DNA of 39,613 nt, from positions 1 to 39,613 of IMG/VR virus record IMGVR_UViG_3300025723_000083; one strand, written 5' to 3'. This document shows positions 3,287 to 32,875 of the stretch, in pieces. The stretch is from a virus. Its lineage: Duplodnaviria > Caudoviricetes. The notes beneath the pieces are model-generated. The model was not told where the DNA came from. It did no database searches and was given only the letters and a program-made list of their open reading frames with translations. Numbering within the stretch: position 1 is the first letter of the stretch; each line of letters begins with the position of its first letter. The position numbers and the translations under genes are program-made.

Positions 3287-3287
3287 A

Positions 3288-6420: not shown

Positions 6421-6438
6421 CCTCACGGCCACTCAACC

Positions 6439-7509: not shown

Positions 7510-7538
7510 CAAAAGCCCATTATCTGGTTGATTACACC

Positions 7539-7568
7539 TTGACACTACCACCCCTTTAAGGCAACACT
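7539..7568 (+). promoter_or_regulatory. putative sigma70-like promoter for the adaptor/ejection gene block
   Basis: TTGACA at 7539-7544 in an intergenic gap; weak -10 (AACACT at 18-nt spacing); palindrome GGTTGATTACACC abuts it at 7526-7538. Confidence 0.4.
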
Positions 7569-7610
7569 TCGGCACTGCGAAGCTCAACCCAAGAACTTTT
7601 TATTTAACCA

Positions 7611-8609: not shown

Positions 8610-8613
8610 AGTT

Positions 8614-9081: not shown

Positions 9082-9100
9082 CAATTAACCAAACACGACT

Positions 9101-9994: not shown

Positions 9995-9999
9995 ATACC

Positions 10000-12039
10000 A
10001 TGGCCGACGACGACTCCAAAACTGACAATAAGGGTGACTCGGAAGATGATCCCCATTCCTACATGGATGGAATGGATGGAGCCGCCGCTAACTCGGGGGT
10101 AACTCCAGCTCCTGCACCAGATCCAGTTGCCGCAGGTGCAGCGGCTATGGACTCTAGTTCAATAGCTCCCGTTTTGGTTTCGCCTTACACAATGGGGTCA
10201 GGTTATTTGACCAATCCGTCTACTAATAGGAACATTTCGCCGCCCACTCATACATTGGGGCAGGCGGTGGAAGCTCAAAACGTCTATGAAGATCCAAGTG
10301 CACCGCACTTGGTTACCCCATACACTATGGGAGCTGGGTATGTAGTTCCAACAAAACCATCTCCAATAAACCCCGCTTTACAAATCCAATCTGAGTTAAC
10401 CCCACTTTTACGTCCAAGTATCCCCGGCGCATTTGGCAAAACCGACTCTAGTGCACCGAGTGTTTTAAATTCCAGTTCTAGTGTTTTTGCTCCAGACCTA
10501 CCTGAGACTCAACCTCAGGCAAAACCATACGCAGAAGACTACACCAATACGGCGCTTAAAAACTTACAGGCACGGATTGATTACGATACGGCTCACGGGG
10601 TCAGCCAACAGGCAATCAACAATTACACGGAGCAAGCTTTAGGTGCGTTAAGGAATGTCCAAAATGTATTTGCCAGTAAACACCCCGAAGTCGCCCCATC
10701 CGTAGCGGGTCAAATGACGGGAATGACAGATGGTAATGGAAAACCATTACCCACGAGTTACGCCAATTTTACTGATACTCCGACAATTAACAACGATGGG
10801 TCAGTAACACAAAGCACTCCTTACGGGGATATAACGATTCGCCAAAACGGCCAGCCCAATAAGCCTTTGATTGCTGGCGGTACAATCAATGGCATTCCAT
10901 CCGAGCAAGCCAACCAGCAACTAGCCCAAAGTTTATTGCGGCAAGGTGTGATAGATCCAAACAGCCCTGCTGCCGTAATCAATTCGCAAATCAATCAAGC
11001 CATCAAGGCTGGTCAACCTTTTGACGATCTCTTGACCAAGAGGGATCAGATGTCTGGCGACCCCAACTTCAATCGGTCCTCAGTTACGGGTGCTGCACTG
11101 CCAACTGAAACTCAATACACTAACGCAAGCAAGCCTGCCCAATCTGGGGGAGCTACTCCATATGTCCTTCCTTCGGCCGAAGAGTTAATGAAAGGACGGT
11201 TTACTGACACAGGTAGGAAAGACGAGAACAGCCAAGAGGTTTATACGCCAAACGAACCGCAGGACAACTTTAGGGCAGATGTATTCACCAACAGAGCTTT
11301 GGAGCAGGCTCTTGGGCATGGAATCTCGAATCTGTACCCGCAAGAGAATGCTCAACTTGGCATCCAGCTTGCCAACGCCGCACAAAACAGGGCGAAAGTG
11401 ACGGGGGAGAAACCAGAAGATATTCTTGCTCGGTCGTTGAACATGGATAGCCAATCTCCGAACATCGAGAACCAGACTAAGTACCAGCTCGCCATGCAGG
11501 CGTTGAAGAACCCAGATCCCGCCGCAATGCTTGCCGCTGGAAGTTCGGTGATTACTCCGTTCTCAGGTGGTGGAGATAAATACCAAGAATCGCAAATTAA
11601 GAACGCTACCAAGAGCGTTAACGAATTGGATGCTACCGATAAGATTAGTCAGGCGTCTCAAAAAACCGCTCAACAGCTTTCCGCTGCAAAAGATAGAATG
11701 GAACTTCAAAGAGAAAAATTTGAAGCTTCTGCAGCTGGTAAAGAAGCCAACTCACTGGATAAGGAAGCTGAACAAATTAACTCCAGAATTGCTGCTCTTG
11801 AAGGCAAAGGAATCCAAACTGATTTTGATAAACAGCACCTAGCCACACTTCAATCGCAACACGATGCGAAAATCGCTCAAGCTTTGAAACTGAGGACAGA
11901 TGGGATTAGTCCAGACGATGACTCAGTAACACCTCAGCCTTCGGTTGTAGCACCTCCCAAAGCCGGGGACATTGTTAGAGGATTTCAGTTCAAGGGAGGG
12001 AACCCAAAAGACAAAGCTAACTGGACTCCCGTAACTTAA
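10000..12039 (+). CDS. putative DNA ejection/pilot protein
   Basis: 679 aa, Q/A-rich coiled coil; C-terminal PKAGDIVRGFQFKGGNPKDKANW motif, of a kind seen at the ends of phage ejection proteins. Confidence 0.6.
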   Translation: MADDDSKTDNKGDSEDDPHSYMDGMDGAAANSGVTPAPAPDPVAAGAAAMDSSSIAPVLVSPYTMGSGYLTNPSTNRNISPPTHTLGQAVEAQNVYEDPSAPHLVTPYTMGAGYVVPTKPSPINPALQIQSELTPLLRPSIPGAFGKTDSSAPSVLNSSSSVFAPDLPETQPQAKPYAEDYTNTALKNLQARIDYDTAHGVSQQAINNYTEQALGALRNVQNVFASKHPEVAPSVAGQMTGMTDGNGKPLPTSYANFTDTPTINNDGSVTQSTPYGDITIRQNGQPNKPLIAGGTINGIPSEQANQQLAQSLLRQGVIDPNSPAAVINSQINQAIKAGQPFDDLLTKRDQMSGDPNFNRSSVTGAALPTETQYTNASKPAQSGGATPYVLPSAEELMKGRFTDTGRKDENSQEVYTPNEPQDNFRADVFTNRALEQALGHGISNLYPQENAQLGIQLANAAQNRAKVTGEKPEDILARSLNMDSQSPNIENQTKYQLAMQALKNPDPAAMLAAGSSVITPFSGGGDKYQESQIKNATKSVNELDATDKISQASQKTAQQLSAAKDRMELQREKFEASAAGKEANSLDKEAEQINSRIAALEGKGIQTDFDKQHLATLQSQHDAKIAQALKLRTDGISPDDDSVTPQPSVVAPPKAGDIVRGFQFKGGNPKDKANWTPVT

Positions 12040-12046
12040 AAAAACT

Positions 12047-15000
12047 ATGTCCGACCTAATGCCTTGGGAACAGAATTATTCAGCTCCCCAAGCTGACAAA
12101 CCAACGGACACTTCAGATCTTCCGTGGAACCAAAATTACGCAACCCCAGAGGGATCGGCTGATTCAAACAATCAATCGGAAACTCTTGCACCCTTAGCTA
12201 CACCAACGGCAAATGATGATGGTGCTTTCTGGGCGGGAGCTAGGTCGGCAGCCCGAGCAATTTTACCGGGAATAGCTGGCACTGCCGCCGCTATACCTTC
12301 CGCTGCTCTTGGAGCTTTTGCCGGTCCAGTTGGAGCTGCGGCTGCAGGCGTAGGTGGTGCAGTCGCAGGGTCAACGCTTGCTGAAAAAATTCAAACAGGT
12401 CTTGCCGATCAAATTGCTCCTGATTCATTTCTTGGCTCCAAGCAAGCCGAAGAAGATCAAGCAAATCACCCAGTTGCTTCAACGCTGGGAGGTCTACTTG
12501 GATTTGGAAGGCCAAGCGTCAAGTCGGCCATGGGAGCTGGCGAGGCATTGCTTACAAAAGGCGGTCGGGAAAGTCTGGCTCTTGCCGCAAAAAATTCCGT
12601 TCCATTTACACAAGCAAGCAGAGACTTTGCAGAAGCCGCCGCCAAAAACCCAGCGGGGGTGGAGGCAAAGGCCGCAGAACGATTCAGCCATGTGGCTGGA
12701 GCTGCCGCTGGCGTTGGTGTTGGAACCGCTCAAGGAATCGCAGCTGGAGATAGCCCGTTGCAAGCCGCAGGAATGGGGGCACTTGGTCTTGGATTTGAGC
12801 CATGGGTCGGGCCGCACGTATTCACTGGTGCTGGAAATGGCCAAGGCTCCACCAAGAAAAGTAAGCTCGATGACCTGGCTAATCAGAAGGTTGATTCTCA
12901 ACAGACCCCGCCCGCTGGAGACACAACGGGTACGGAGACAAATGTTGAAGAGAATGCCGACAATACCGATGTAGATAAGGAGAGTCTCGACAACATCAAC
13001 GATTCGATCAATAAGGCAGATCCAGCCACCAAAGATCTGGCCAACAACTTGGCAGATAATTCATCCCCTCAAACAGCGGCAGCAGTAATCGCCGCTGGAA
13101 CAACTTCTGCTTCCACACCAGCTTCAGAAACTACTACGGATAAAACATCTGTGGTTCCAGAAGTAAAAGCAGAACCTGCCGCAACACTGCAACCCGGCAT
13201 CACTTTCGTCCCAAATGCTGAAGGTCAGGTTGCATCAACCACGACCGAACCTGCTACAGCGGCAACCACAATTGCTTCAGAGCCAGCGACCGAGACTGCT
13301 ACCCCAGCACCGAAGGTTCAAGTGGCTCAAGACCCAGTAGCCGTTGCCGAACAAGCTGGCAAAACCCCCATGGAGTTCTTGCAGGAGAAGCCAGTCCTTG
13401 CTCTTGCCGAAAACCGACCACTCATGCGCAGTGGCCTCAATGTTGATAAGAAAGAGAACGGCAAAACAATTTCCTCGTTGGCCAACATCCGTGACCACGC
13501 CATCCAGACAAACAATCCAGTGTTACTGGCTGCAGTGTATCACGAGATCACTGTACGGACGGCAAAGACTCCAAATTCCAACAATTCCAATTTTCAATTC
13601 GGGGTAATAAGAGCCTACGAGCAAATGACGGGTGAGAAGCCGCTCTTGCCTGCCGACTCACAGCTTAAAGTAAAAACAACGGAGAATGGCTTCCCCAGGG
13701 TAATGAAAGGAGGGCCAGGCTTTGACCTGTCGGCCTACCAGCGTTCCGTGGAGGCACCTGTTACTCCCGCCACAGAACAAACCCCAGCTCCAAAACCTGC
13801 CGCTGAAAAGACCCCCGAAGTAACTTTGCCCGAAGAGGAGTTAGAAAATACCGAGGTTCCAGAGGGTGCTTTCACCGACGAAGAACAACCTCCGACAGAA
13901 GAAATTACTACTGCCAAAACAGCGGTCTCTTACACAAACGAAGCCCAAAAATTAGCTGAAAAACAAGGGATCAATCTGGCAGACGTACAACCAAATGCCC
14001 AAGGCACGGTTACCAAGCGTGAAGTTGCAGCTCACATAAAAGCCAATCCCCCAGAGCCAACTCCTGTCTGGCACTACGAGACTCCAGAAGCAAAAAAGTT
14101 TTTTGAAAATTTTGACGATCTGCAAAAAAAATCGGAAGAGGCAAAGACCCCCGAAGAAAAACAACAATTTGATGATCAATTGTTATCGTTGAAATCGAAA
14201 GCTAGGCAAAACCCCGAGTTGTACACACGGTGGAACCTCAACAACCCTGCGGTCAGATCGTATGATCAAGCAGGCGTTGCAACAGGAATAGCAAAGCTGG
14301 GGGGAGCAACTTGGAAAAATACCAATAGCCAAGAGACGGGATCGATGAGGCTTCGTGAGGTCAATCTTGCAGACGGAAGCACGGCTTTTGTTGATTTGGA
14401 CACGCTCCCCGAGGCAGTTGCAGATTCAATAGCTTACCCCGACCAAAGAAACCTTTCGGAAATCTCCCGTAGAACGGGGCATACCACAAAAACACTCAGG
14501 ACTTGGGAATCCCAAGGTATGCCGGGGGATACCGAAGGAGCAATCAACTGGATTGAAAAACACCAAAGAGATAAAAAAATCGCTTCTCAATCCAAGGAGG
14601 GGAAAAAATCTGCTGCTTCCTTGGATGCTACTTTGGGGGATAGCACCGCTACAATCGGGGATACTTTTGTTGGAGAAAACCCTACAAAACTTTCTACAGA
14701 AAAAGAAACCTACAGCGATTCTATTGTTAATCGAGCGGTTGCTCACATGGCAAGAACCGACATTCCTTTGTCGGACAGGTTGGCAGTTGGGAGAAAATTA
14801 CTGCAAGAAATTGATAACGGAACCAATAACGGGTTTACCGATGATCATTATAAAATAATCAGTTCGGCTTTGGATAAGCTACAAAACAACGCCTTTAAAG
14901 CTACGGAAAAACCAGCCGAGACTGAAAACAACGAAGATAAACTCAAACGACTGCAAGAGGGACACGATGCAGTAAGGGACACAATAGAACATCTTCGATC

Positions 15001-18000
15001 TAAAGGGGAAGATGTGACTCTTAAACAAGTACAAGATTTGGGGCAGCAAATGGTGGACGAGGGAATCCTTCCCCCCGGAGCAAAAAAAGTATTGGAAAAA
15101 AGAAACAAAGAAAGAGAACTCTCCCCAGAGGATTTGCTGGATGAGTTAGATTCGATCCATCAAAAATCTCAACGGGAACTTGATCGTACACCGCAAGAAA
15201 AGATGTCCCCCGAGGACTACGCCGATTATTTGGAAAAACTGCCTGAAGCGGAACGAGACGAGATTCCCACAAACGAAAATTCCGAAGGATACAATTTGTG
15301 GGAGGCTAGGAAGTTAATTTCCAAACAAAAACCCAACCAAACAAAATTTAAAAAAGTTTCCATGGATAACAGCATGGAACTGCACAACGAGTTTACCCAC
15401 ATCGCCAATGTAGATGGGGAACCTTATGGTTTAACAAACGAACTCGAAGACCCAGACGACGAAAATGCGTTTGTTTGGGGATTCCGTAGGATAGGTGATC
15501 TGAACTCAGATATGGTTGAGACTCCTTGGGGCAAAGGCAGTGAGGACGAAGTGGTGAAGATGATGCAGGAAGACCTTCAAGATCACTTGCAGGGGGAGAG
15601 TGAAATAGAAAATCAAAAAACTCCAGAATCTGTAGAGGAGCCAAGTAAAGAAAAAGAAGAAGAAGCTCCAAAAGAAGATTACCAAAAATCCAGTGACAAG
15701 GCCGATGAGTTGTTGAAAGAAGGTTATGATGCCGAGCAGCTCATGGATCGTTTTCATGTAAACGGAGAAGGTCGTGATCCGCTCCGTAAATTCCGCACTG
15801 GCACCGAGCACCTGGAGAACGAAGAGCCGCCAGCCGATCAAGTCACCCGTGGAGAACCGATCCAAACTATGCACGCTGGTGATCTTCTTGATCGTATCCA
15901 GCAAGATTTACGGGAGCGTGATAGCAAAGGCGGGATCAAAGATCGTGCCGCTCTTTCGTTTTTACGAACCATTGCCGATGTCTTTGCAAAGAACCGGGCA
16001 AGGCTAGAAGCCATACCCACCGATATTTTTCATGAACTCGAAGAGGGAACCGCTGGCGAGTACGACAAGCAGACCAAACGTATCTCACTCCCACAGGACT
16101 TCGACAGCGAGACGGCTCTTCACGAAATTTTCCACGCCCTTACCCAAGGAGGTGGGTTCCATTCCGCAGAGATCAAGAGACTCTTCTTGAAAATCCGCAA
16201 TGAAGCAGTCAAGCGCGGTTTGACTTCCGAGGAGCAGTGGACTCGTGCGGCAAATCCCGATGTCCTAGACAAGACTGCCGACGACGAGTTTCACTATGCC
16301 TTTTCATCGCACGACGAAATGATTGCGGGTCTCTTGAATCCCGACATTCGAGAGGCGTTAAACGCCATTCCGTTGAGGGACGAGGTGACGGGCAAAATGT
16401 CCAACGCATGGGAGCAACTTAAACAAAAGTTCCTCCAGCTCCTTGGCTTCCGAGTCCAGTCTGGATCAGCCTTGGATCACTATTTGACCCATGTCATGGA
16501 GCTGGTCAAACCCAGTACCGGGTCGGGTAACAAAAATTATTATTCTGCTCAATCGAATAATACGCTTGACACAAAAGGGGGTAATAGTGTAGTATATGCG
16601 AATGATTATGTCAAAAAAGACCCTTACTTCGGATCACGGACCTCTATCATACGAGGATCGCAAGAAGGCGGACAAGGTGCGCTTGAGCAGACTCCACAAA
16701 TCCAGCGAAGCGCACGAGAAGTCGCTGATCGAGGCTCAAAAGTCCGAGATGCGTTACTTGCAGTCCTTGCCGACGAGAAGCTGGTTGGAAGAGATCTTTC
16801 TAAACGCACTGAAGCGCAAGTTCGCCAAGTAAGTAACGCGCTATCGCGCTCTCTAATAGCCCCAGAAGAGGAACTCTCTCTTGGGAAGACTACAAACGAA
16901 AAGCGACTTGCGGAAGCAATACGCAAATTCCGAGAGGTTGTTCCTCTTGTTCCGTCAGAAGAGATAGATCGCCTCACCCAGTCCGAGGCAGACTCGGGAC
17001 TGATGTTGGATCAAGTCCAAGAAATGTATGAAAATGGGGCTCTTAGCGACGATAAATATGCCAAAGTTTTAAATGAATTAGCTAGGCAAAACGGCATTAA
17101 ACTTGGGAACGACCTTGATGCGGGAGCAGAGATGCTTCGTAAACACTTGGAGAACCACCAGTCTTCGGGAGCAAAATGGGTGCTGGAAGGGGAAGGAGCG
17201 GAGTCGAAGGCATATAAAGACGACCACGGCGTAGTCTATAAACTATCTCCCATAAGACAAGATGTATTGGGGATAGACTTGATAAACAAGGGGGCGCTAA
17301 ATTTAACAGACCGTCAACCAAGTCTATTTGATAGGGATGGTAGAATTCCCCTTTTTGACCGATTGATTGCAGCTAATTCTATGCCCGGACATTCGCCTAC
17401 GGAGATTGCTGGAATTACTACAGATGGGCGGATCATCCTTAAACAACCTTATTTAGGGAGAGAAGAATCTGAGACAACCAATCTAGTGCAAGCGGCAATA
17501 GATTCTGGATTGGAGATATTGCCAACGCAGAAAGAAGACCCTCGATTCGGAGGAGATGTAAATACAACGCCGATTATGTTTACGATAGGTGGAGAGCCGT
17601 GGCTCGCGTTGGACTACAACTCCCGAAACGCTCGATCTGTAGAAGGGAGATCAGTGCCTTTCGACTTGGTTTTCAAAAAACTTACCGCCAAGGAAATTGC
17701 GGCAAACAAAGACTTAAAGATTGCCGCTGATAAATTACAAAAAAACACCCTCAACTCAATTGCTCTTCGTTCAGTTAAATTCCGTAAAGCAACTACGGCT
17801 GGGGCAAATGACGCAGAACGTGAAATAGATCCCACTCGTCCAGCTCCTTTCTACAACTCTTCCACAAATGTGGAGACCACACAAAAAATGTCCGATTACA
17901 TCAATAGTGTGGGTACGGATGCCGCATACGAAAATTTGGTGAAGTACGCCAAAGACCCGACTATGGCCAGGGCACATGGATACGAAGAGAACGAAGTTCG

Positions 18001-20947
18001 TAACGGGCTGAAACAGCTTCAAGGCCAATACCAGAACAAGTACACGGAATCTCTGAAAAACCCCTCCCCTACGGCAGAAGATCTTGTAAATAGGAGAACG
18101 GCAAAATCACGCAATGAAGAGCTTACTGATCTGAACAAAATCATGGGAAGTGCGGCAGGTAAAGCCACCCAAGAGGGAGCCAATGTGGATTCTGTCAACA
18201 AGGCACCACAGGATTGGGTGGACGAGTATTTGAAATCTACTCTGGGTGGAAAACTAAATGAACTCGGAGCAGGAAAGCTCAATATCCGTCAACTTGTTGA
18301 TGGGATAAAAGCCATCAAACAATCGGCTGCGGAGATGACGATTGATGGTGCCACCAAGCTTCTTAGTAAATTTGGAATTGTTGAACCCGAGCGCTTGGCA
18401 CAACTGAAAACAATTTTGGGAGATACCGACACTACCCGAGCAGATCTTAAATCTGTTTTGGCGGAGATGATCGGAGGAAACAACCCAGAAAAAGTCGAGG
18501 CGGCAACTCAGCAGCTGACTGCTTTGTACAATACGGCTTCGCAAAAACTCGCTAGGGTGCAACTTCCCAAGGAGGTATTTGCCTCTTATGCAGGCAACGG
18601 AACAAAAGGTTCGGCTTCTGTAAGTGATAAGCTAGGCAAATACATTGGACTTGGGAGATTCAATGAAGATCAGATTCACAAGACCCTGTTGGAAACAATC
18701 GGAATCACGGGATACGATGCGGATTTTGTGAAAGCGATCCGAGACGAAGCCGCCCGGATTCAAACTCTGCCCAAAAATTCTGCACCCTACAATGATGCCT
18801 TGGCGGATTTCCAAGGTGCACTGGGTAACGAAATTTTAAGTCAACAGTGGAAAGGATCGGGCGTACTTGGAAAAGTTAAAATTGGTCTTGTTAAGATTTT
18901 ACCCGATTTGTTCCGCAGTGCTATTCTTACTGGACCTCAAACACTTCTTACCCACGGGTTTTCGGGAGGTCTTAATGTGCGACTCGAAGCGGGATTTGAA
19001 GCACTGGGTAGATACCAAGCGGCTTTGAATGAAGGTAGATCAGCGTCCGAAGCGGCTGGATACTTTAAAGACTACTTTGAATCTATGTTTGGCGGGGACA
19101 AAGGAGCTAGAGGTCGTCCTCTCGGAGGAGAGTTTTGGAGAGCCTTACGCACGGGTAAAGCCGCCGTAGGAACGAGCAAAGGAATCGGTCTTCGAGGTAG
19201 TGATGCCCTTGGGAGCAGCAATTTTGGTGGATCTGGAATCGGAGGCAAAGTTTTCCGATTTTACTCAAAGGCTATGGGAGTTCTTCCACGAACTCTTCTT
19301 GCATTCGACACTGTGAATGCGGGATCTGGAGAAGAACTTAACCAGAGATGGGCAACTCGGGCAGCTCTTTTAAATGCAGGTAGCAACGCCGAAGAAGTGG
19401 CTACCGAAATGAAACGCATTTTTGCTCCATCCACGGAGCAGTTGCAACCTGCCTACGACAAGTTGGCAGAAGAAGTCAGCAAAGGGTATTTCAACGGAGT
19501 GACTGGTTTTCAGAAAAAAGCTTTGTTGGCAGAACGATTGGAACAACTTCACAAATCAACACGTCCTTTGGAAGCCCTCAAACAAGCTGAGGCTGGAACA
19601 AAAGCCACAGAAGACTGGACAATGAAAGGAGAGCAGCATGGTCTTTGGGGTGCCCTTACAGGTGCAATTGGAAGTGCAAACAGAAAGACGGGCGTAACGG
19701 GTTTTGTGTTTCCGTTCACCCGTATTATCAGTGCTTTGATGAATACCTCGTTGAGCTATACTCCGCTGGGATTGTTGCGGGCGAACAATGCTTCCCTCTC
19801 CAACCTTTTCCTCCCAGAAAACTCAAAGTACGCATGGCCTAAGATGGTCAAGGGATCGCCAGAACAACTTGCTCTTACAAGTAAATCTATCCTTGGTTCT
19901 TCAATTGGCTTGGCCATCACGACAATGTTCCTAAAAGAACTTTCGGATGAAGAACAGACGGGAAAAAAGCCAGCGTTTATGTTCTATGGTGCCGGTCCGA
20001 AAGACCCCGCAAAACGAGGTGAATGGATGGCTGCGGGCGGGAGACCCAACACATTTGCGGTGGGTGATACTTATCTGCCGTATAAAGCTATACCCGGCAT
20101 TAACCTTTTGGGAACAATGCTTGGGACACTTCACGACTATGTGACTTACGAAAATCCGCTCCCCAAAATGAAGGGCGGGCAGATGCCTACCGCAGAGGAG
20201 ATCGCTAAACACAATAATTGGGTCTCTAGCGACAAGGCGTACCGCATTGCTACGGCGATTGCAATGAGCCCTCTTGAGCAACACTTCTTAAGTGGAGCCA
20301 AGAATTTGATCGACATCATGCACGACCCTCAGGGTGCATCGGCTCCAAGGGCAGTGGTTAACCAATTAGTCGGAACAGCCAGTCAATTCACTAACCCCAC
20401 TGTGTTTCGCACTGTTCGCGCTTTGCTTGGAGGCATTAGGCAACCAGAAGGGAATTCCCCCACTCTCGATACATACAATTCGTTGGACGGAAAAGCCGCT
20501 CAATTCATTCCGTTCTACGCTGGGTTTAATACACCATCACTTAATGTGTTAGGAGACCCGATCCAAAAGAAACCTCTTGATGCCATTACAGATAGGTGGT
20601 TGTTTTCTTCAACTACTGCTCCAGACCCAATTATTTCGCCGTTAGTAAACAATGGGTTGTTTTTACCTGGACCGAAGAAGAATTCTCCAATCATGGTTAA
20701 CAACCAAGGTAAACTTGCTACCTTGAATGATGCGGGCGACGATGCTTGGAGAGCCTACGTGGTGGCCAGAGGTAGTTTCTTAAAACAAGTGCTGTCTCCA
20801 AGCGTGGTACAGCAGCTAATCAACATGGATCGTATCCAAGCGCAATCTTATCTGGACGGCTCTGACATTGGTGGGGCGGCTTCTCACTATGCGAGAGATA
20901 TGGTGGAAGCAATGATCCAAAGCGGTCAAATCAAAGTCAACGGCTAG
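12047..20947 (+). CDS. giant polyvalent internal virion/ejection protein (zincin peptidase, kinase-like domain, LPD-type C-terminus)
   Basis: 2966 aa; N-terminal PWE repeats and Gly/Ala hydrophobic helices; HEIFH at 16121; GEGAES/VYKL/DYNSRN/PFD kinase motifs at 17189-17665; FVFPF…YTPLG and GGRPNTFAVGD in the C-terminal region. Confidence 0.8.
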   Translation: MSDLMPWEQNYSAPQADKPTDTSDLPWNQNYATPEGSADSNNQSETLAPLATPTANDDGAFWAGARSAARAILPGIAGTAAAIPSAALGAFAGPVGAAAAGVGGAVAGSTLAEKIQTGLADQIAPDSFLGSKQAEEDQANHPVASTLGGLLGFGRPSVKSAMGAGEALLTKGGRESLALAAKNSVPFTQASRDFAEAAAKNPAGVEAKAAERFSHVAGAAAGVGVGTAQGIAAGDSPLQAAGMGALGLGFEPWVGPHVFTGAGNGQGSTKKSKLDDLANQKVDSQQTPPAGDTTGTETNVEENADNTDVDKESLDNINDSINKADPATKDLANNLADNSSPQTAAAVIAAGTTSASTPASETTTDKTSVVPEVKAEPAATLQPGITFVPNAEGQVASTTTEPATAATTIASEPATETATPAPKVQVAQDPVAVAEQAGKTPMEFLQEKPVLALAENRPLMRSGLNVDKKENGKTISSLANIRDHAIQTNNPVLLAAVYHEITVRTAKTPNSNNSNFQFGVIRAYEQMTGEKPLLPADSQLKVKTTENGFPRVMKGGPGFDLSAYQRSVEAPVTPATEQTPAPKPAAEKTPEVTLPEEELENTEVPEGAFTDEEQPPTEEITTAKTAVSYTNEAQKLAEKQGINLADVQPNAQGTVTKREVAAHIKANPPEPTPVWHYETPEAKKFFENFDDLQKKSEEAKTPEEKQQFDDQLLSLKSKARQNPELYTRWNLNNPAVRSYDQAGVATGIAKLGGATWKNTNSQETGSMRLREVNLADGSTAFVDLDTLPEAVADSIAYPDQRNLSEISRRTGHTTKTLRTWESQGMPGDTEGAINWIEKHQRDKKIASQSKEGKKSAASLDATLGDSTATIGDTFVGENPTKLSTEKETYSDSIVNRAVAHMARTDIPLSDRLAVGRKLLQEIDNGTNNGFTDDHYKIISSALDKLQNNAFKATEKPAETENNEDKLKRLQEGHDAVRDTIEHLRSKGEDVTLKQVQDLGQQMVDEGILPPGAKKVLEKRNKERELSPEDLLDELDSIHQKSQRELDRTPQEKMSPEDYADYLEKLPEAERDEIPTNENSEGYNLWEARKLISKQKPNQTKFKKVSMDNSMELHNEFTHIANVDGEPYGLTNELEDPDDENAFVWGFRRIGDLNSDMVETPWGKGSEDEVVKMMQEDLQDHLQGESEIENQKTPESVEEPSKEKEEEAPKEDYQKSSDKADELLKEGYDAEQLMDRFHVNGEGRDPLRKFRTGTEHLENEEPPADQVTRGEPIQTMHAGDLLDRIQQDLRERDSKGGIKDRAALSFLRTIADVFAKNRARLEAIPTDIFHELEEGTAGEYDKQTKRISLPQDFDSETALHEIFHALTQGGGFHSAEIKRLFLKIRNEAVKRGLTSEEQWTRAANPDVLDKTADDEFHYAFSSHDEMIAGLLNPDIREALNAIPLRDEVTGKMSNAWEQLKQKFLQLLGFRVQSGSALDHYLTHVMELVKPSTGSGNKNYYSAQSNNTLDTKGGNSVVYANDYVKKDPYFGSRTSIIRGSQEGGQGALEQTPQIQRSAREVADRGSKVRDALLAVLADEKLVGRDLSKRTEAQVRQVSNALSRSLIAPEEELSLGKTTNEKRLAEAIRKFREVVPLVPSEEIDRLTQSEADSGLMLDQVQEMYENGALSDDKYAKVLNELARQNGIKLGNDLDAGAEMLRKHLENHQSSGAKWVLEGEGAESKAYKDDHGVVYKLSPIRQDVLGIDLINKGALNLTDRQPSLFDRDGRIPLFDRLIAANSMPGHSPTEIAGITTDGRIILKQPYLGREESETTNLVQAAIDSGLEILPTQKEDPRFGGDVNTTPIMFTIGGEPWLALDYNSRNARSVEGRSVPFDLVFKKLTAKEIAANKDLKIAADKLQKNTLNSIALRSVKFRKATTAGANDAEREIDPTRPAPFYNSSTNVETTQKMSDYINSVGTDAAYENLVKYAKDPTMARAHGYEENEVRNGLKQLQGQYQNKYTESLKNPSPTAEDLVNRRTAKSRNEELTDLNKIMGSAAGKATQEGANVDSVNKAPQDWVDEYLKSTLGGKLNELGAGKLNIRQLVDGIKAIKQSAAEMTIDGATKLLSKFGIVEPERLAQLKTILGDTDTTRADLKSVLAEMIGGNNPEKVEAATQQLTALYNTASQKLARVQLPKEVFASYAGNGTKGSASVSDKLGKYIGLGRFNEDQIHKTLLETIGITGYDADFVKAIRDEAARIQTLPKNSAPYNDALADFQGALGNEILSQQWKGSGVLGKVKIGLVKILPDLFRSAILTGPQTLLTHGFSGGLNVRLEAGFEALGRYQAALNEGRSASEAAGYFKDYFESMFGGDKGARGRPLGGEFWRALRTGKAAVGTSKGIGLRGSDALGSSNFGGSGIGGKVFRFYSKAMGVLPRTLLAFDTVNAGSGEELNQRWATRAALLNAGSNAEEVATEMKRIFAPSTEQLQPAYDKLAEEVSKGYFNGVTGFQKKALLAERLEQLHKSTRPLEALKQAEAGTKATEDWTMKGEQHGLWGALTGAIGSANRKTGVTGFVFPFTRIISALMNTSLSYTPLGLLRANNASLSNLFLPENSKYAWPKMVKGSPEQLALTSKSILGSSIGLAITTMFLKELSDEEQTGKKPAFMFYGAGPKDPAKRGEWMAAGGRPNTFAVGDTYLPYKAIPGINLLGTMLGTLHDYVTYENPLPKMKGGQMPTAEEIAKHNNWVSSDKAYRIATAIAMSPLEQHFLSGAKNLIDIMHDPQGASAPRAVVNQLVGTASQFTNPTVFRTVRALLGGIRQPEGNSPTLDTYNSLDGKAAQFIPFYAGFNTPSLNVLGDPIQKKPLDAITDRWLFSSTTAPDPIISPLVNNGLFLPGPKKNSPIMVNNQGKLATLNDAGDDAWRAYVVARGSFLKQVLSPSVVQQLINMDRIQAQSYLDGSDIGGAASHYARDMVEAMIQSGQIKVNG
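16566..16595 (+). promoter_or_regulatory. internal sigma70-like promoter inside the giant ORF
   Basis: TTGACA (16566-16571), 18-nt spacer, TAGTAT (16590-16595), within an AT-rich patch. Confidence 0.55.
16602..16832 (+). CDS. overprinted small basic helical protein (76 aa, +1 frame), possibly leaderless
   Basis: ATG 7 nt after the -10 box; ORF open for 76 codons; helical amphipathic sequence. Confidence 0.45.
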   Translation: MIMSKKTLTSDHGPLSYEDRKKADKVRLSRLHKSSEAHEKSLIEAQKSEMRYLQSLPTRSWLEEIFLNALKRKFAK

Positions 20948-24310: not shown

Positions 24311-24742
24311 GTGATACATTCGCACGATTTTGTGAGCATACTTGGCGACCAAATAATTGAACTACGGGCTAAGGGAATGAGCTTCAAAGCCATTGCCAAA
24401 GAGATACCATGTTCATTAAGTACGGTTGCCTATTTTCTTAGCGACAACCAAAAAGAAAAAACGGCTAAAAGAAACCGAACTCGCCGCCAACGAATTCTTC
24501 AAGAACTGAAGGAGACTTTTGGTGGCGAATGTGCAGTCTGTGGGTACAAAACCTGCATCACTGCTCTCGAGTTTGATCACTTGGCTCCCAGCACCAAGAC
24601 TGCCGAGGTTTCTGCTCTTCGTAACCATGCGGCCTCTGCAAAAGCCGAGGCTGAAAAATGTATTTTGCTATGTTGCCGTTGTCACCGGGAGCGACACGCT
24701 GGGTTGCTTGATATTGGTGCTTACCTGGAGCCGTCCGAATGA
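24311..24742 (+). CDS. HTH + HNH (Zn-finger) endonuclease
   Basis: N-terminal HTH (LRAKGMSFKAIAKEIPCSLSTV); CAVCGY…LEFDH…CILLCCRCHRERH. Confidence 0.75.
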   Translation: MIHSHDFVSILGDQIIELRAKGMSFKAIAKEIPCSLSTVAYFLSDNQKEKTAKRNRTRRQRILQELKETFGGECAVCGYKTCITALEFDHLAPSTKTAEVSALRNHAASAKAEAEKCILLCCRCHRERHAGLLDIGAYLEPSE

Positions 24743-25298: not shown

Positions 25299-25538
25299 AT
25301 GCTTTTTCTCGCAAGGGTGAATTTCTTAAATAAAAAACAACTGGCTACTTCTTTGGGGAGGTCTCGTACTTATGTATCGGCCATGTGCCGAGCGGGGTTT
25401 ATATTTCAGTACGGCGGATTGACTATCTTGGAGGAAGCTCTGGACTGGCTTAAATTAAATCCGGGGTTCCGTGTGGCGAATGTGTACAACGAGAAAATTA
25501 ACCCCTCAAAAGAAAAACTCCCCGCCAGCATAGACTGA
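25299..25538 (+). CDS. small HTH (excisionase/AlpA-like) DNA-binding protein
   Basis: LNKKQLATSLGRSRTYVSAM…ALDWL; start codon uncertain. Confidence 0.55.
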   Translation: MLFLARVNFLNKKQLATSLGRSRTYVSAMCRAGFIFQYGGLTILEEALDWLKLNPGFRVANVYNEKINPSKEKLPASID

Positions 25539-25546
25539 CGAGGAGT
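25508..25546 (-). terminator. rho-independent terminator
   Basis: Minus strand ACTCCTCGTCAG-loop-CTGGCGGGGAGT followed by TTTTTCTTTT. Confidence 0.7.
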
Positions 25547-25615: not shown

Positions 25616-25644
25616 ATTTTATGCGTGGTTGATTAAACCATCAA
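25616..25644 (-). promoter_or_regulatory. sigma70-like promoter overlapped by a palindromic operator
   Basis: TTGATG (25644-25639), 17 nt, TAAAAT (25621-25616); TGGTTTAATCAACCA overlaps the -35 box and spacer. Confidence 0.6.
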
Positions 25645-27251
25645 GCATTAAGTGTCGTCTCGAAGTTGGACAATGAGTGTTCGATAAGCATGGGTGCATT
25701 GGCTTGGCACCACTCCGTTGCCGAGACATCTGAGTTCGTGAGTTCGGTTGTCATAGGTGTTGCACAGCTCGGCATAACCCAACCCACTGGCAGACCCATC
25801 AAAGCCTCCACAAACCTCGGATTCAACTTGGCAGTTATCTTCTCCTTCTGTTGAGCCGTCGAGTCCGACTTCAATGCTTTGTCTCTGGTCGGAATTCCCA
25901 CAATCGAAGGATGATTGCTCAGTCCAGGTTGACCGAAGTTCGGTTGATTGCCGATCTTCCCCGCTTCCATTGCCGTCGGTGTCGGCCACGAGGCTTGCTT
26001 GTAGATCTCCACTGAGGTCGGGTCTACCTGCTCTCGCAAGTTCGCTGGCGAAGTTCGTCCCTTGCGGGTCGTCGTGGCTTGACGAAGTAACGCTTCGGGT
26101 GAACGGAGATCCATGTGATCCAGCGTATTCGGAGTCGCCCAAGCCGCCATCCTCGCTAGATCCCGACCCAAACATTTCTGGTTGCTTTGAGTCCCCGTCC
26201 TCACCCCCTCGATGTGGTCTGATGCTTGAGGGGTTGCCCAGTTGTTGGGCTCGTATTTCCCCTCGATGGTTGCCGCCAGACCCTTGCCGTAGCCCGGAGA
26301 GGTTGTCCCCGGTTCCTGAGCTCTGGGAGTCGGCCAGTTGTTGCCCACCTGAATGGCCTGCGACTTGAGTGGAAGATGAAGGTTCACCCCTTTCTCCGCT
26401 TGCGTTGCCGCACGCTTCTCCCACTGCTCCTTGGTCTCGGGTTGATTCCAGTCGAAGGCCGAGGGAGTCGCCCACTTGGCGTGAACGTGATCCCTCAACT
26501 TGTACTTCCCCGCCGTCCCCGGCCGCATCTCCATGATGCCCCCTTCCCCGTCCGACGAGCTTGGTGTTCTCCAATACTCTTGGGGGTTCCCAGTCGTGTT
26601 GTCTTTCGCCGGGTCTAGCAGGCCACCTGGAAGGTAGGCTTGTACTACCACATCCAGCGTGTCCATGGACACTTTGCCCCTGCGTATCCGACCACCTGAG
26701 TAGCCGCCCTTGTGATCCCGAGTCGATGCGGTCGGCCAAGATGAAGACTCTTTTGCGTTGGTGGGGAGCACCTCCTGACCCTGCTTCAGACGCCGAGAAA
26801 ATTCCGAACGTCGTTTTGTAACCAAGCTCTTCCAAGTCGCTGATGACTGAGTTGAGTCCCATCGATACGTGCCCGTCCACATTTTCAAAGAAACATTGGT
26901 GGGGTCGCATAAGTTCAATTCCGTCTTTGATCCAAGGCCAGAGGTGTCTTGGGTCTGACTTGCCGAGGCGGTTGCCAGCGGCACTGAATGGCTGACAGGG
27001 ATAGCCTCCACTGAGGATAGATACTCGGTCACGAAAGAGTTCCCAAGGGAAGGCTTTAAGGTCCGTGTGGATAGGGGCGACATCCAGTTGGCCTTCTTCA
27101 ATGCGCTTGAGAAGGACCGAGATCGGGAAGGCTTCCCGTTCACAGTAAGCGATTGTTCGTAGAGCTGGCAGAGCTGCTCTGATTCCCAAGTCAATGCCTC
27201 CGTATCCAGAGCACAAGCTGACGTGTGTAATTGTTTCGGTAGTATCCACAT
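25641..27251 (-). CDS. overlapping MTase beta-like chain with 7 WxTP modules and motif IX
   Basis: 536 codons open in a second frame; repeated W(P/A/R)T(P/A)xxx(D/E); LNPRFVEALMGLPVGW (motif IX). Confidence 0.8.
   Translation of the reverse strand: MWILPKQLHTSACALDTEALTWESEQLCQLYEQSLTVNGKPSRSRSFSSALKKANWMSPLSTRTLKPSLGNSFVTEYLSSVEAIPVSHSVPLATASASQTQDTSGLGSKTELNLCDPTNVSLKMWTGTYRWDSTQSSATWKSLVTKRRSEFSRRLKQGQEVLPTNAKESSSWPTASTRDHKGGYSGGRIRRGKVSMDTLDVVVQAYLPGGLLDPAKDNTTGNPQEYWRTPSSSDGEGGIMEMRPGTAGKYKLRDHVHAKWATPSAFDWNQPETKEQWEKRAATQAEKGVNLHLPLKSQAIQVGNNWPTPRAQEPGTTSPGYGKGLAATIEGKYEPNNWATPQASDHIEGVRTGTQSNQKCLGRDLARMAAWATPNTLDHMDLRSPEALLRQATTTRKGRTSPANLREQVDPTSVEIYKQASWPTPTAMEAGKIGNQPNFGQPGLSNHPSIVGIPTRDKALKSDSTAQQKEKITAKLNPRFVEALMGLPVGWVMPSCATPMTTELTNSDVSATEWCQANAPMLIEHSLSNFETTLNA
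25648..27249 (-). CDS. C5-cytosine DNA methyltransferase, catalytic (alpha-like) chain
   Basis: Motif I SLCSGYGG, IV GYPCQPFS, VI ENV, VIII HQRKRVF, X LGNGVVP; GTG start. Confidence 0.85.
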   Translation of the reverse strand: MDTTETITHVSLCSGYGGIDLGIRAALPALRTIAYCEREAFPISVLLKRIEEGQLDVAPIHTDLKAFPWELFRDRVSILSGGYPCQPFSAAGNRLGKSDPRHLWPWIKDGIELMRPHQCFFENVDGHVSMGLNSVISDLEELGYKTTFGIFSASEAGSGGAPHQRKRVFILADRIDSGSQGRLLRWSDTQGQSVHGHAGCGSTSLPSRWPARPGERQHDWEPPRVLENTKLVGRGRGHHGDAAGDGGEVQVEGSRSRQVGDSLGLRLESTRDQGAVGEACGNASGERGEPSSSTQVAGHSGGQQLADSQSSGTGDNLSGLRQGSGGNHRGEIRAQQLGNPSSIRPHRGGEDGDSKQPEMFGSGSSEDGGLGDSEYAGSHGSPFTRSVTSSSHDDPQGTNFASELARAGRPDLSGDLQASLVADTDGNGSGEDRQSTELRSTWTEQSSFDCGNSDQRQSIEVGLDGSTEGEDNCQVESEVCGGFDGSASGLGYAELCNTYDNRTHELRCLGNGVVPSQCTHAYRTLIVQLRDDT

Positions 27252-27290
27252 TTGTATGGGGTTGGTAGGTTAGTGCGTGGTTGATGATAC

Positions 27291-28715: not shown

Positions 28716-29087
28716 TTATTTAGTGGTTGCGAGCAAACGCTTCTTTGCTTTTGTAATAAGAGTTTTTTTAACTTCTTCTTCGACTTCTTGAGGGTCGGGG
28801 GATGGGTGAACCAGCTCGGAGAGATAAATCAAGTAGAGATCGCCAAAACACTTGAGGTATTCGGATGCCACCGGGTGTACATATTTATATAAACTTCCGT
28901 ACTTGCGGGTTCGTTGAACCCACCTCTCCTCGGCATACCCAAGTTTCGTAAACAAACTGTAGGCACGCTTGGCTTGATTGCTGTTTACCTTGAAGCACCT
29001 TTGAAATGGAACTAAAGGCAACTTTTTCTGAGCGGTGCTGTGGACTGCTTTTGAAAGCTTCGGCATCTTGTCGAGTAGCGTCTTCAT
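28716..29087 (-). CDS. hypothetical protein, paralog of 28367-28714
   Basis: Same shared motifs; C-terminal AKKRLLATTK also shared with the upstream gene. Confidence 0.65.
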   Translation of the reverse strand: MKTLLDKMPKLSKAVHSTAQKKLPLVPFQRCFKVNSNQAKRAYSLFTKLGYAEERWVQRTRKYGSLYKYVHPVASEYLKCFGDLYLIYLSELVHPSPDPQEVEEEVKKTLITKAKKRLLATTK

Positions 29088-29121
29088 CTTATTTGGTGGT
29101 TGCGAGCAGACGCTTCTTGGC
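28716..29121. repeat. 33-bp direct repeat (28716-28748 and 29089-29121)
   Basis: 30/33 identical; encodes AKKRLLATTK* in both genes. Confidence 0.8.
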
Positions 29122-29865
29122 CGCTCGGACTTGGGACTTCACTAAAGACTTTGTTGCCGCCTCGGGGGTAGTCCCCCACCCCGTGAAGCCGAAGGAGTTG
29201 ACCACCGCATAGCCAGTCTCGGGAGGGTTGAAGCCGACCTTGGTTGTACGAGTTGCTCGGTTGACCCAGTAGAACTCCATGTCGCCACGATCCAGCTCGG
29301 GCTCACGCCTGCACTCCAAGGGAAAGAACTTGTGACCGAACAGCTCGGCTACCTTGCAGGCGGGTGAGTTGTGCCAGTCCTTGGGGACATTGGCCTCGTA
29401 GTCAACATTACTATTGCCCCATCCGCCGACATCACACTCCGCAGTAATGCGGTACGGCTTATCGGGGTTGCGGGTGACTCGACCATTTTTGTTGCAGGTC
29501 GTGTTGATGATTTTCTCGATACACTTCTTGGCCTGCTTGGCGATGCGATTGCTGAACCACTCACGACGATTCTTCAAAGGCTCGTTGATACGTTTGTGAA
29601 TCTCGTCGTTCGGACCTGAAGCACAACTCAGCTCATATCTAAGCTTCGCATTGTTAACGAAGAACTCCTTGCGTTGAAGGGTCTCCCGAATGAGATCGGC
29701 GTGCTTGTTGACCATCTTGAACACCTCGTTGCCAAGCTCCATGCGGAGGGTCTCCATAACTTGGAGTGACTCGTCGATTTCATTGACACTGGATTGCCAA
29801 CGGCGTTCGTAGTAATCACCATTATAGTGATCTTTAAGAACTGGTTTGGGTGGGTAAGAGAGCAT
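29089..29865 (-). CDS. hypothetical protein
   Basis: 258-aa ORF with CCTTAAACAAAACTATG leader. Confidence 0.7.
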   Translation of the reverse strand: MLSYPPKPVLKDHYNGDYYERRWQSSVNEIDESLQVMETLRMELGNEVFKMVNKHADLIRETLQRKEFFVNNAKLRYELSCASGPNDEIHKRINEPLKNRREWFSNRIAKQAKKCIEKIINTTCNKNGRVTRNPDKPYRITAECDVGGWGNSNVDYEANVPKDWHNSPACKVAELFGHKFFPLECRREPELDRGDMEFYWVNRATRTTKVGFNPPETGYAVVNSFGFTGWGTTPEAATKSLVKSQVRAAKKRLLATTK

Positions 29866-30549: not shown

Positions 30550-31821
30550 TTAACCGCCCACAGGAATGTGGACGGTATCGCCGAAGGGAGCGGTCAGCCG
30601 CTCGTTGTTGTAGACGCACCAGATGGTGGGGAATGGCCAAGCGACATCGGGGAAGCTGCCCTCAAGATCGGTCAGATAGATGACGACTCGTGGGTCGATG
30701 CCACGGCGGAGGATCTCCTCGCCGACGGGACGGAAGTCGGTTCCGCCACCGCCACGAAGAGTCAACTCGATGGGAGACTGATCGTGATACTCCTGCACAT
30801 CGGTGATCGCCGCATCACACTGAATCACGCTGACCTTGGTAGGTTTGCACCTAGCGATGAGCGAGTTGATCTCGGACTGGAAAGAGCTGACAACCTCGGG
30901 GACTCCGTAGATAGAGCCAGAGGTATCGACTGCAATGACTACTTCGCCAAGGGTCTCGTCGTGAAGATCGGGGAGGACGATGTCGTCAGGTAGGAAACGG
31001 CGGTCAGGCTTGTTCCAGCTATAGTCGTTGGCGCTGGTCTGGTCGATGAACCGCTCCAAGATCTGTTGCCAAGGAACCTTGGGGTTGACGAGATCTTGAA
31101 CCAATGCCTCGACACAACCGGGCACGCTACCCTGCATCTTGGCAGAGGTAGCAGCTTGGACTAAACGACGCTCCCACTCCTTCTCCATCTCGTCGGCGGT
31201 AAACTCGTCGGTCGCCGCTTGTGACTCGAACTCGCCCCAGCCGCCTTCGGATTGGGTGCGGGGGGCGTTGGGGTCGGGCTTACCCTTGCCACCCTTGGAG
31301 GTGGGGTCGGGTTGACCATTGCCGCCGTTGCCGTCGCCATCCTCGGTGTCGTCACCCTCGCCACCCTCTGGCTCGTCGGGTTCGTCTTGAGGCTCGGGCG
31401 GTGGCTGTGGCTTGCGGATGTCGGCAAGGATCTGCTCGCACGACATATCGTCGTACTTGTGATCCAAGCAACCGCCGTCGGGCAGGGGCAACGCCAAGGC
31501 ACCAGCTTCCTTGTTGTAGTTATCGAGGAAGTTGTTGATGGCGTAGTCGCCAGCAATGTTGCCGTCCTTGTCTCGGGGCAAGCGAGTCAAGTGACCAAGG
31601 GCAGGGTGCATGACCTCATGCACTAGCAAACCAGCAACTTGTGCCTCGGATAGCGAGTTGATGAAGTCGGGATTGTAACGGATGACCACACCATTGGTGC
31701 AGGCAGTCGGTACGCTCGGGTCTTCGATCCGTGGCATCTGCAACAGGAGCGTTGCAAAGAACGGATGGTCGAGAACGATCTGGGTGGTAGCGGAGGCTAC
31801 TTTATCTGAGGCGATGGACAT
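30550..31821 (-). CDS. metallopeptidase + vWA domain protein (DUF2201-like)
   Basis: PTACTNG, HEVMH, acidic linker, MIDAS VDTSGS, GGGGTDF, YLTDL; start set at MSIASD. Confidence 0.85.
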   Translation of the reverse strand: MSIASDKVASATTQIVLDHPFFATLLLQMPRIEDPSVPTACTNGVVIRYNPDFINSLSEAQVAGLLVHEVMHPALGHLTRLPRDKDGNIAGDYAINNFLDNYNKEAGALALPLPDGGCLDHKYDDMSCEQILADIRKPQPPPEPQDEPDEPEGGEGDDTEDGDGNGGNGQPDPTSKGGKGKPDPNAPRTQSEGGWGEFESQAATDEFTADEMEKEWERRLVQAATSAKMQGSVPGCVEALVQDLVNPKVPWQQILERFIDQTSANDYSWNKPDRRFLPDDIVLPDLHDETLGEVVIAVDTSGSIYGVPEVVSSFQSEINSLIARCKPTKVSVIQCDAAITDVQEYHDQSPIELTLRGGGGTDFRPVGEEILRRGIDPRVVIYLTDLEGSFPDVAWPFPTIWCVYNNERLTAPFGDTVHIPVGG

Positions 31822-31849
31822 AAGGTTTAAGGGTTGAGTTGGTTGAGGG

Positions 31850-32875
31850 TTAGGAGGCGTGACCGAAGACCTCGGGGTTGTCCGTGATCCAAGTGGTGAA
31901 CGCTGGGGTCGCACTGAGGCTGGACTTGGAAGTGACTGCCGTCTTGACAGCGAACACCTCGAACTCCTTGGCCATGCGGCTGACATAGGTGACGAAGGCT
32001 CCCATCATCTTGGGGGTAACCTTCTTGGAGAGACCCGCACAGGTGGCGTAGATCGTGGAAGGATCGGTCGGCACCTCGGCGGTGTCGGGCGACAGGAGCA
32101 CGGCATCGAGATTCGGGAGCTTCTCGTAGATACCGAGGAAGCCGAGGAACTCGGTGGATGCGGCCTGACCGAGAGTGCCGTCCAGCAACAGGTGACGGAC
32201 GGTGCGGTCGGAGCAGGTCTCCACAATCTTGGACGCCTTGTCCCAAGTGCGGGGTGAGGCAAAGTTGCTGACGCCGTCCCACTTGGCACCATTGAAGGTG
32301 GTCAAGAGATCGGGGCGGAAGCGGATGAAGGCGATGACGATAGGGTCAACGCCGTTCTTCTGTGCCCACTTAGTCCAGCTCTCAAGGTCAAGCTTGATGC
32401 GGATGTTGACGATGCGGTTGACCACAGCCGACGAGAGCTTCTCGATGTTGACTCGATCCTCTGCACGATTGCCGAGCAGACAGACGAAGGCGTCATCGGG
32501 CAACTTGTGGTCGCCGACCCGGTTGTCGTTGAGGAGCTGCAACGCCACATTCTGGACAGAACGAGTGGCGCAGTTGAACTCTTCCAAGGCGATGACTGGC
32601 GTGGCGGTCTTCGGCCAGAAGGCTGGCTTACTGAACCGCATGGTCTTCTCACCTGCCTCGTCGGTGTGGAGATACGGGAAGCCCTGCACATCCTGCGGTG
32701 CGTAGTAGGCGAGTCGTGCATCGACGAACTCGGCACCGATGGAGTTGGCGTACTCGGCGACGACGGCGGACTTGCCGACGCCAGGCTGACCTTGGATGAA
32801 GGGTCGGAGACCTGCGGCGTGGCAGGACTTGAGGACACCCTTGAGTTGGGTTGGGGTTGCTTCGATGGTTTGCAT
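31850..32875 (-). CDS. MoxR-like AAA+ ATPase
   Basis: Walker A GQPGVGKS, Walker B ALEEFN, LGNR, NR arginine finger, SPRTW. Confidence 0.85.
   Translation of the reverse strand: MQTIEATPTQLKGVLKSCHAAGLRPFIQGQPGVGKSAVVAEYANSIGAEFVDARLAYYAPQDVQGFPYLHTDEAGEKTMRFSKPAFWPKTATPVIALEEFNCATRSVQNVALQLLNDNRVGDHKLPDDAFVCLLGNRAEDRVNIEKLSSAVVNRIVNIRIKLDLESWTKWAQKNGVDPIVIAFIRFRPDLLTTFNGAKWDGVSNFASPRTWDKASKIVETCSDRTVRHLLLDGTLGQAASTEFLGFLGIYEKLPNLDAVLLSPDTAEVPTDPSTIYATCAGLSKKVTPKMMGAFVTYVSRMAKEFEVFAVKTAVTSKSSLSATPAFTTWITDNPEVFGHAS

Follow-up and report, generated by a model that had tools for sequence, protein, structure and literature searches.

Two open reading frames (ORFs) that overlap almost completely lie at 25641..27251 on the minus strand of the virus record IMGVR_UViG_3300025723_000083 (Duplodnaviria; Caudoviricetes), and together they very probably encode a single two-chain C5 cytosine DNA methyltransferase. 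We refer to the whole analysed stretch, all 39,613 bases of the record (56% complete by CheckV), as the window; coordinates at the locus are on the minus strand throughout. The chain that we call beta has 536 amino acids, starts with ATG and runs from 27251 to 25641, comprising an N-terminal arm, seven cassettes and methyltransferase motif IX. Alpha has 533 amino acids, starts with GTG and runs from 27249 to 25648, carrying motifs I-VIII and X around a 305-residue low-complexity linker. Their start codons overlap in the string ATGTG at 27247..27251 and their stops are 7 nucleotides (nt) apart, beta overhanging alpha by 2 nt at the 5' end and 7 nt at the 3' end. An initial annotation made from the sequence had described just such a pair, stop-free on the same strand over 1.6 kb from an ATG at 27251 and a GTG at 27249 (its frame A is alpha and its frame B is beta), and rereading the sequence confirmed these two frames. 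PHROG annotates both chains as DNA methyltransferase, in separate families (alpha phrog_363, beta phrog_1008).

The double open frame is not due to chance. Both coding frames are free of stops and the third frame contains 21. When the alpha protein was held fixed and synonymous codons were drawn according to the window's usage, the +1 frame, that of beta, stayed open gene-wide in none of 20,000 redraws, with 12.7 stops expected, and over the catalytic part alone it was open in a share of 0.00045. The reverse redraw, with beta residues 176-500 fixed, left alpha's frame open in 0 of 20,000. The stretch is present in freshwater metagenome runs; no indel or joint at the locus was found in contigs of four of them, where no listed piece covers the whole stretch and the deepest run may be the window's source.

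By its motifs and predicted catalytic fold, alpha is a C5 cytosine DNA methyltransferase of the PF00145 family. Residues 8-177 match PF00145 with 83.6 bits (cut-off 22; E 2e-23), the sequence is similar to M.HaeIII as well as M.HhaI, and a Foldseek search with the alpha model returned M.HhaI, M.HaeIII and DNMT1 at E values near 1e-10. Motif names and numbering follow the C5 consensus, together with packing in a complex model of a relative, L056, described below. On this basis, alignment places motif I, for S-adenosylmethionine binding, at residues 12-18 (27196..27216), motif VI (E-N-V) at 122-124 (26878..26886) and motif VIII at 163-169 (26743..26763). The catalytic Pro-Cys of motif IV, at 84-89 (26983..27000), is invariant in 65 aligned rows, and motif X, at 509-514 (25708..25725), is supported by both alignment and packing. 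The intervening linker, residues 176-480 (25810..26724), is stop-free and contains 53 Gly, 46 Ser, 24 Asp and 24 Arg. The alpha model is confident in the catalytic part and at about 500-533, and its predicted local distance difference test score (pLDDT) falls below 50 for most of 193-495. Within the linker the clade conserves a short Trp-rich motif at 209-224, and alpha is also conserved just before motif X. Motif IX is the one that alpha lacks; alignment and the L056 model locate it in beta, at residues 476-491 (25779..25826), such that motifs IX and X are both present and are split between the chains. This bears out the initial annotation, which had listed motifs I, IV, VI, VIII and X around a Gly/Ser/Arg-rich middle of about 300 residues in one frame and motif IX in the other.

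Beta begins with an N-terminal arm, residues 1-171 (26739..27251), that is overprinted on alpha's catalytic motifs and docks on alpha in the L056 model. From residue 172 up to motif IX, parsing resolved beta into seven cassettes, all different, which measure 32-55 residues and have W-x-T-P or W-x-T-A at the head. They are cassette 1 (residues 172-226; 26574..26738), of a type found in four loci including the window; cassette 2 (227-259; 26475..26573), found in eight loci; cassette 3 (260-305; 26337..26474), in six; cassette 4 (306-337; 26241..26336), in the window only; cassette 5 (338-370; 26142..26240), in four; cassette 6 (371-421; 25989..26141), in seven; and cassette 7 (422-475; 25827..25988), in 12. 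Across 111 complete betas we counted 449 cassettes, with 0-8 per beta, a median length of 37 residues and about 160 types at a 60% cut over 24 residues. The consensus built from 71 types reads W-x-T-P-x-A ... L-x-x-Q-V, and Thr occupies position 3 in 413 of the 449, a feature reminiscent of the published TL motif (PMC2413257). Modelled alone, beta reached a mean pLDDT of 49, unfit for a fold search; the model has helices over the catalytic overlap, whose confidence is low as far as residue 81 and high at 134-160. A Pfam search with 19 beta-type proteins gave no match. A public gene call of this beta starts at a later Met and has 480 residues.

Both frames are kept open in relatives. An alpha-only query returned 80 IMG/VR loci; adding the window itself and five close loci that a beta query found gives 86 loci, 76 of them distinct; this count leaves out four distant beta-query loci and four GenBank records. 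Over alpha's catalytic part, the +1 frame contained no stop in any of the 76, where 348 were expected in sum, compared with 514 stops in the +2 frame against 404 expected. These loci are not independent trials, because the sequences are related. The proposal that homologs would keep both frames open is thus upheld over the catalytic part. Further scans brought the number of parsed loci to 187, of which 174 (125 distinct) have a W-x-x-P anchor in the beta N-terminus and 13, more distant, do not; in 110 of the 125 both chains are complete, and in four more they are cut by a contig edge. From the beta scan we estimate that about 1,200 of the stored viral stretches match the pattern, and beta is matched by 1,898 proteins. 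Among the groups with the best genome matches are Verrucomicrobia (records of Geminisphaera, Pedosphaera and Opitutae, for example), which is at most a hint as to the host. Five copies of a two-frame methylase of this family (L105, L106, L110, L113 and L114), three of them near-identical, occur in a single Dehalococcoidia genome record.

Adjacent start codons are also conserved. Beta's start precedes alpha's in all 125 anchored distinct loci, by 2 nt in 67, 5 nt in 50 and 8 nt in eight; alpha starts with GTG at the 2-nt spacing and with ATG at the two longer ones. On a FastTree phylogeny of alpha's catalytic part the spacing changed at least 22 times by parsimony (shuffled mean 45), a count that recombination may inflate and from which we claim no direction of transfer, and neither start was lost. 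The initial annotation had proposed a phage M.EcoHK31I-type enzyme whose subunits initiate at one ribosome-binding site, such that start-codon choice could set their stoichiometry. The two-chain type and the neighbouring starts stand. The exact ATGTG string is found in only 65 of the 125 loci, and 57 have ATG for both chains; therefore, the ATG/GTG contrast is not conserved. In the window the 39-nt A/C-rich leader (27252..27290), which follows the stop of an upstream 84-residue ORF, has no match to a Shine-Dalgarno word. Because of this and of the 57 ATG/ATG loci, control of the alpha:beta ratio through a single ribosome-binding site is unproven. Among 119 relatives, a Shine-Dalgarno-like word lies 3-12 nt ahead of beta's start in 46, a count for which no chance level was computed, and in 36 the upstream gene's stop overlaps or abuts beta's ATG (22 at -2 and 14 at +1), which suggests translational coupling. 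The order is reversed in phage C75C1, where alpha's ATG lies 7 nt ahead of beta's, and in distant family members beta begins about 60 codons downstream of alpha's start. Judged by these sequences, co-initiation is a trait of the window's clade and not of the whole family.

We measured selection with a pairwise overlap-aware ratio, NN/NS for beta and NN/SN for alpha (N, nonsynonymous; S, synonymous), using 300 of 2,080 pairs among 65 sequences. By alpha codons, the beta ratio is 0.008 at 2-10, 0.20 at 11-80, 0.46 at 81-172 and 0.049 at 470-520, and alpha's ratio is 0.067 across 11-172. The third, unused frame gave 0.8-7.7, and a null from ten single-coding neighbour families gave 0.36-2.89 in nine, the tenth being an uninformative zero. 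Over shared cassettes (1,098 pairs, first 24 codons) beta's ratio is 0.048 and alpha's is 1.16. Selection thus changes frame along the gene, acting on alpha in the catalytic part and on beta at the N-terminus, in the cassettes and near motif IX; across the cassettes alpha is merely kept stop-free, its amino acids being neutral. Given the strong constraint on its first codons, beta's N-terminus is very likely translated. The initial annotation's description of frame B as low-information sequence over the catalytic part fits codons 81-172, where constraint is weak, and fails for the first 80 codons, which are under purifying selection.

The cassette array is shuffled among relatives. Of 110 arrays, 102 are distinct, seven pairs of types are seen in both orders, and in none of the 110 does the same type occur twice. 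Alpha length follows cassette number (rho 0.88 over 63 loci, about 39 residues per cassette), and alpha has its 300-residue filler because the shuffled array overlaps it in beta's frame. Locus L001, whose alpha catalytic part is 86% identical to the window's, is without cassettes 2, 4 and 5, and the DNA boundaries fall at cassette heads. The DNA of cassette 2 is 77-82% identical in L086, L088 and L089, where the alphas are 37-39% identical and there is no other DNA match. The distribution of cassettes 2 and 7 over the tree is close to random (7 changes against 7.9 when shuffled, and 8 against 8.8, respectively), and carriers of cassettes 1, 3 and 6 cluster.

Some relatives show other kinds of change in this region. 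The cassette region contains homopolymer or dinucleotide tracts of varying length. About 565 nt past alpha's start there are C-tracts, C10 in L061, L062 and L067, C9 in L065 and L080, and C11 in L070; L080 also has a G10 tract at 766 and L102 has (GA)15 at 685. The C10 tract shifts both frames, joining beta's N-terminal part to alpha's end. Finding the same C10 shift in three distinct contigs (and in L077) suggests slippage-driven on/off switching over error. In L022, L033, L052 and L088 an HNH-type ORF is inserted at beta motif IX in beta's frame, such that beta ends with an altered motif IX and a stop and alpha reads through; the L022 alpha also stops early. In Staphylococcus phage CUB-EPI_14 a relative lies under a cytosine methyltransferase gene.

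A complex of the two chains was predicted for the minimal relative L056 (251 and 234 residues, one cassette) with S-adenosylhomocysteine. It scored 0.86, compared with 0.47 for the best of three controls; the score mark that it passes is reached by 116 of 157 solved and two of 215 mismatched pairs, a rough benchmark given that our model used its own alignments and a ligand. Runs share at least 62% of contacts and partner pLDDT is at least 62. In the model, beta's motif IX (215-221) contacts alpha's motif X (230-237), contacts with alpha are also made by beta residues 1-8, where Ile3 lies on alpha 58-60, and the cassette Thr, beta Thr170, lies on His159 in alpha's motif VIII. In M.HhaI the threonine of the TL motif likewise adjoins motif VIII. 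Cassette residues 177-199 are not among the listed alpha contacts. The heterodimer foreseen by the initial annotation thus has the support of a model of a one-cassette relative.

These results suggest a mechanism. With both frames open here and in relatives and start codons 2-8 nt apart, ribosomes would start at either codon and yield both full-length chains, as the pattern of selection implies. In the predicted packing, beta's motif IX lies on alpha's motif X and the very start of beta meets alpha 58-60. The threonine in the W-x-T-P head would sit beside alpha's motif VIII, leaving the variable cassette body clear of alpha, and each cassette may be an alternative recognition module that occupies this one site in turn. 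Such an enzyme could methylate several sequences and thereby shield phage DNA from host restriction enzymes. Phages evidently gain, lose and reorder cassettes in whole codons, alpha reading through them as a neutral spacer to motif X.

Precedents exist for the parts of this arrangement. In M.EcoHK31I (E. coli HK31, target YGGCCR), alpha is described as carrying motifs I-VIII together with X, and beta, with motif IX, as encoded in an alternative frame (PMC2836561, PMC3404938). The window has the same alternative-frame beta and the same motif split, a likeness judged from the published description, since none of the collections searched yielded the sequence of M.EcoHK31I. The window's beta differs from the small one described there in being, with 536 residues, as long as alpha, in starting 2 nt before it and in having seven exchangeable cassettes. 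No restriction-endonuclease partner was recognised beside the window gene in the Pfam/PHROG annotation. M.AquI (CYCGRG) is reported as a two-gene C5 methyltransferase (PMC3404938). It shares with the window the principle of two chains making one enzyme, and AquI-type splits occur in Goose, Catdawg, Heather and L108; unlike M.AquI as described, the window keeps motif X on alpha and its overlap is complete. The Bacillus phage enzymes (SPR, SP-beta MtbP, phi3T, rho11 and H2) are described as multispecific, with tandem target-recognition domains (TRDs) (PMC8936443, PMC2413257) that share a TL motif with the core PT(ILV)(TASV) (PMC2413257). Like those enzymes as published, the window's gene is phage-borne and has tandem, short, variable modules of similar length before motif IX, with a Thr-centred core. 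Bacillus TRDs are about 40-55 residues long. In contrast to those single chains with measured targets, the window's modules belong to a second chain, encoded in an overlapping frame, their Thr motif stands at the head of the module, and no profile similarity to MtbP is detectable. The enzyme would thus work like both M.EcoHK31I and the Bacillus phage enzymes without fully fitting either family.

Related layouts vary in where the reading frame is crossed. ShiLan gp70 (L199:5185-6513) carries three cassettes in frame between motifs VIII and IX, in one chain, and also has a +1 ORF that is truncated. The cassettes, IX and X are all on beta in actinophages and L108, where alpha stops earlier; L116:1941-2507 (Nonomuraea) has a beta of cassettes only; and L091-L093 (Goose, Catdawg and Heather) have an AquI-like partial overlap. 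Throughout, the cassettes keep their slot before motif IX while the crossover moves, and this fixed position supports a role in recognition. Paenibacillus phage Kiel007 gp52/gp53 have the nested layout of the window, both ORFs being annotated as DNA-cytosine methyltransferase, with the differences that beta begins about 200 nt inside alpha and that there are three cassettes; the account consulted tabulates the gene pair without more comment (PMC6070908). Our literature search, which covered few subscription journals and no supplements, found no paper on a co-initiated full overlap or a cassette array. A link to the hidden-HNH element of ShiLan (PMC11855218) was rejected, as ShiLan gp65 reads as an N6/N4-type methylase; in that paper and PMC9957025 the subject is another methylase class.

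Overlapping frames, conserved paired starts and shuffling of the array are matters of observation; that both chains are translated and bind each other we infer strongly. We consider it probable that the locus encodes an M.EcoHK31I-like two-chain C5 methyltransferase whose beta cassettes set multiple targets. Several points weigh against this. The exact PT(ILV)(TASV) core occurs in just 17 of 449 cassette heads, most of which have Pro after Thr, and the cassette profile has no match to SP-beta MtbP (probability 0.05%). In known enzymes the main specificity loop precedes TL (PMC2790894), and the window's variable body comes after W-x-T-P. Beta gave no match in Pfam or NCBIfam, nor to PDB sequences by single-sequence or profile search. 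The TRD of M.EcoHK31I is predicted in alpha, not beta, according to the published accounts (PMC2836561, PMC3404938). The pairwise counts behind our ratios are non-independent and have no confidence limits, and beta's 0.46 over alpha codons 81-172 lies within the null range; 11 of the 125 loci are broken, frameshifted or outside the motif IX pattern used. Finally, the complex is that of a one-cassette relative without DNA, built from alignments of our own, and it may have passed because it resembles monomeric C5 enzymes of solved structure. The absence of a match to the MtbP TRDs, the poor fit of cassette heads to the TL consensus, the published position of the M.EcoHK31I TRD and alpha's conserved segments at 209-224 and before motif X would all suit a two-chain enzyme that is not multispecific, in which only one cassette docks, or the cassettes confer general DNA affinity or relaxed specificity, and targets are chosen through alpha or beta's fixed arm. 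We regard this as the less likely account, though one to be taken seriously. Shared cassettes pooled over array positions are under strong purifying selection in beta, and alpha's middle is neutral over them, which sets the window apart from M.EcoHK31I as described, with its TRD on alpha; alpha's short conserved segments may still contact DNA. That no type is repeated in 110 arrays also fits different specificities better than added affinity.

Other explanations concern how beta is made or what it does. Beta could come mainly from an internal start, with the 5' ATG minor or unused and co-initiation irrelevant: internal Met starts are reported as active in M.EcoHK31I, distant relatives begin beta some 60 codons in, the public call starts late, and beta is weakly constrained over alpha codons 81-172. 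We think this improbable, as beta's first codons are its most constrained, a start lies ahead of them in 125 of 125 loci at three spacings, and beta residues 1-8 contact alpha in the L056 model. It is very unlikely that alpha is stand-alone or dead and that beta, overprinted on it, does something else, for example as an inhibitor or scaffold. Beta's want of a Pfam or PDB match and its poor lone model would permit this, but alpha's catalytic residues are invariant, and alpha is without the motif IX that beta has and that the model packs on motif X. Least likely of all is a single polypeptide, for which programmed frameshifts would take ribosomes from alpha (I-VIII) to beta (cassettes, IX) and then return them to alpha (X). 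Layouts in which beta carries IX and X after alpha's stop (actinophages, L108) and slippery homopolymer tracts in some relatives lend it something, but it requires two opposite shifts and accounts neither for a beta frame that is open and under selection upstream of motif VIII nor for an alpha frame that stays open across as many as eight cassettes.

The two-chain gene with target-setting cassettes would unite, in one fully overlapped and phage-common gene, the nested arrangement of M.EcoHK31I and the tandem recognition array of the Bacillus phages. More tentatively, we suggest a widespread phage class with adjacent co-initiating starts, in which a catalytic chain is paired with a specificity chain of up to eight cassettes of 28-58 residues; a common pool of at least 160 types would supply these, with exchange even across lineages whose alphas are less than 40% identical. 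Every cassette would be readable in both frames, selected in one and stop-free in the other, and the whole might amount to a multi-target methylation system, natural and programmable, and to an extensive code for DNA recognition that can be read. Should the cassettes determine targets, phages would have in them an anti-restriction library that recombines, and the roughly 160 natural types would make the C5 sequence-to-target code directly testable. The locus also shows cleanly how selection can switch frame over the whole length of an overlap. Because gene callers often retain a single frame, the specificity chain drops from annotation, as in C75C1, which has both frames with near-coincident starts and whose record lists alpha only.

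Across the window (1-39613), C-containing palindromes are strongly depleted (CCGG, CGCG, ACGT, GCGC, GGCC, TCGA and GTAC), and CCCGGG, CGATCG and GGATCC are absent; palindromes were counted on both strands, which inflates the z-values. The depletion is compatible with restriction pressure but cannot be linked to the cassettes. About 95 nt past both methylase stops, a 13-pair hairpin followed by a T-run (25517..25546, minus strand) resembles a terminator by consensus match only. A free-standing helix-turn-helix (HTH)-HNH endonuclease gene lies at 24311-24742 (+), about 900 nt from the methylase's end and on the opposite strand. Further away, a 2,966-residue ORF at 12047-20947 (+), with no Pfam, PHROG or NCBIfam match, adjoins large unannotated genes (3216-12039); these and the 2,966-residue ORF are possibly internal virion proteins. 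At 30550-32875 (-), a MoxR-like AAA ATPase gene stands beside a DUF2201 metallopeptidase/von Willebrand factor A gene, with a 137-nt overlap as listed, in a GC-rich stretch with several long alternative-frame ORFs. The neighbouring proteins at 28716-29087 and 29089-29865 (-) have the same C-terminal nine residues, suggesting that a short gene end was duplicated.

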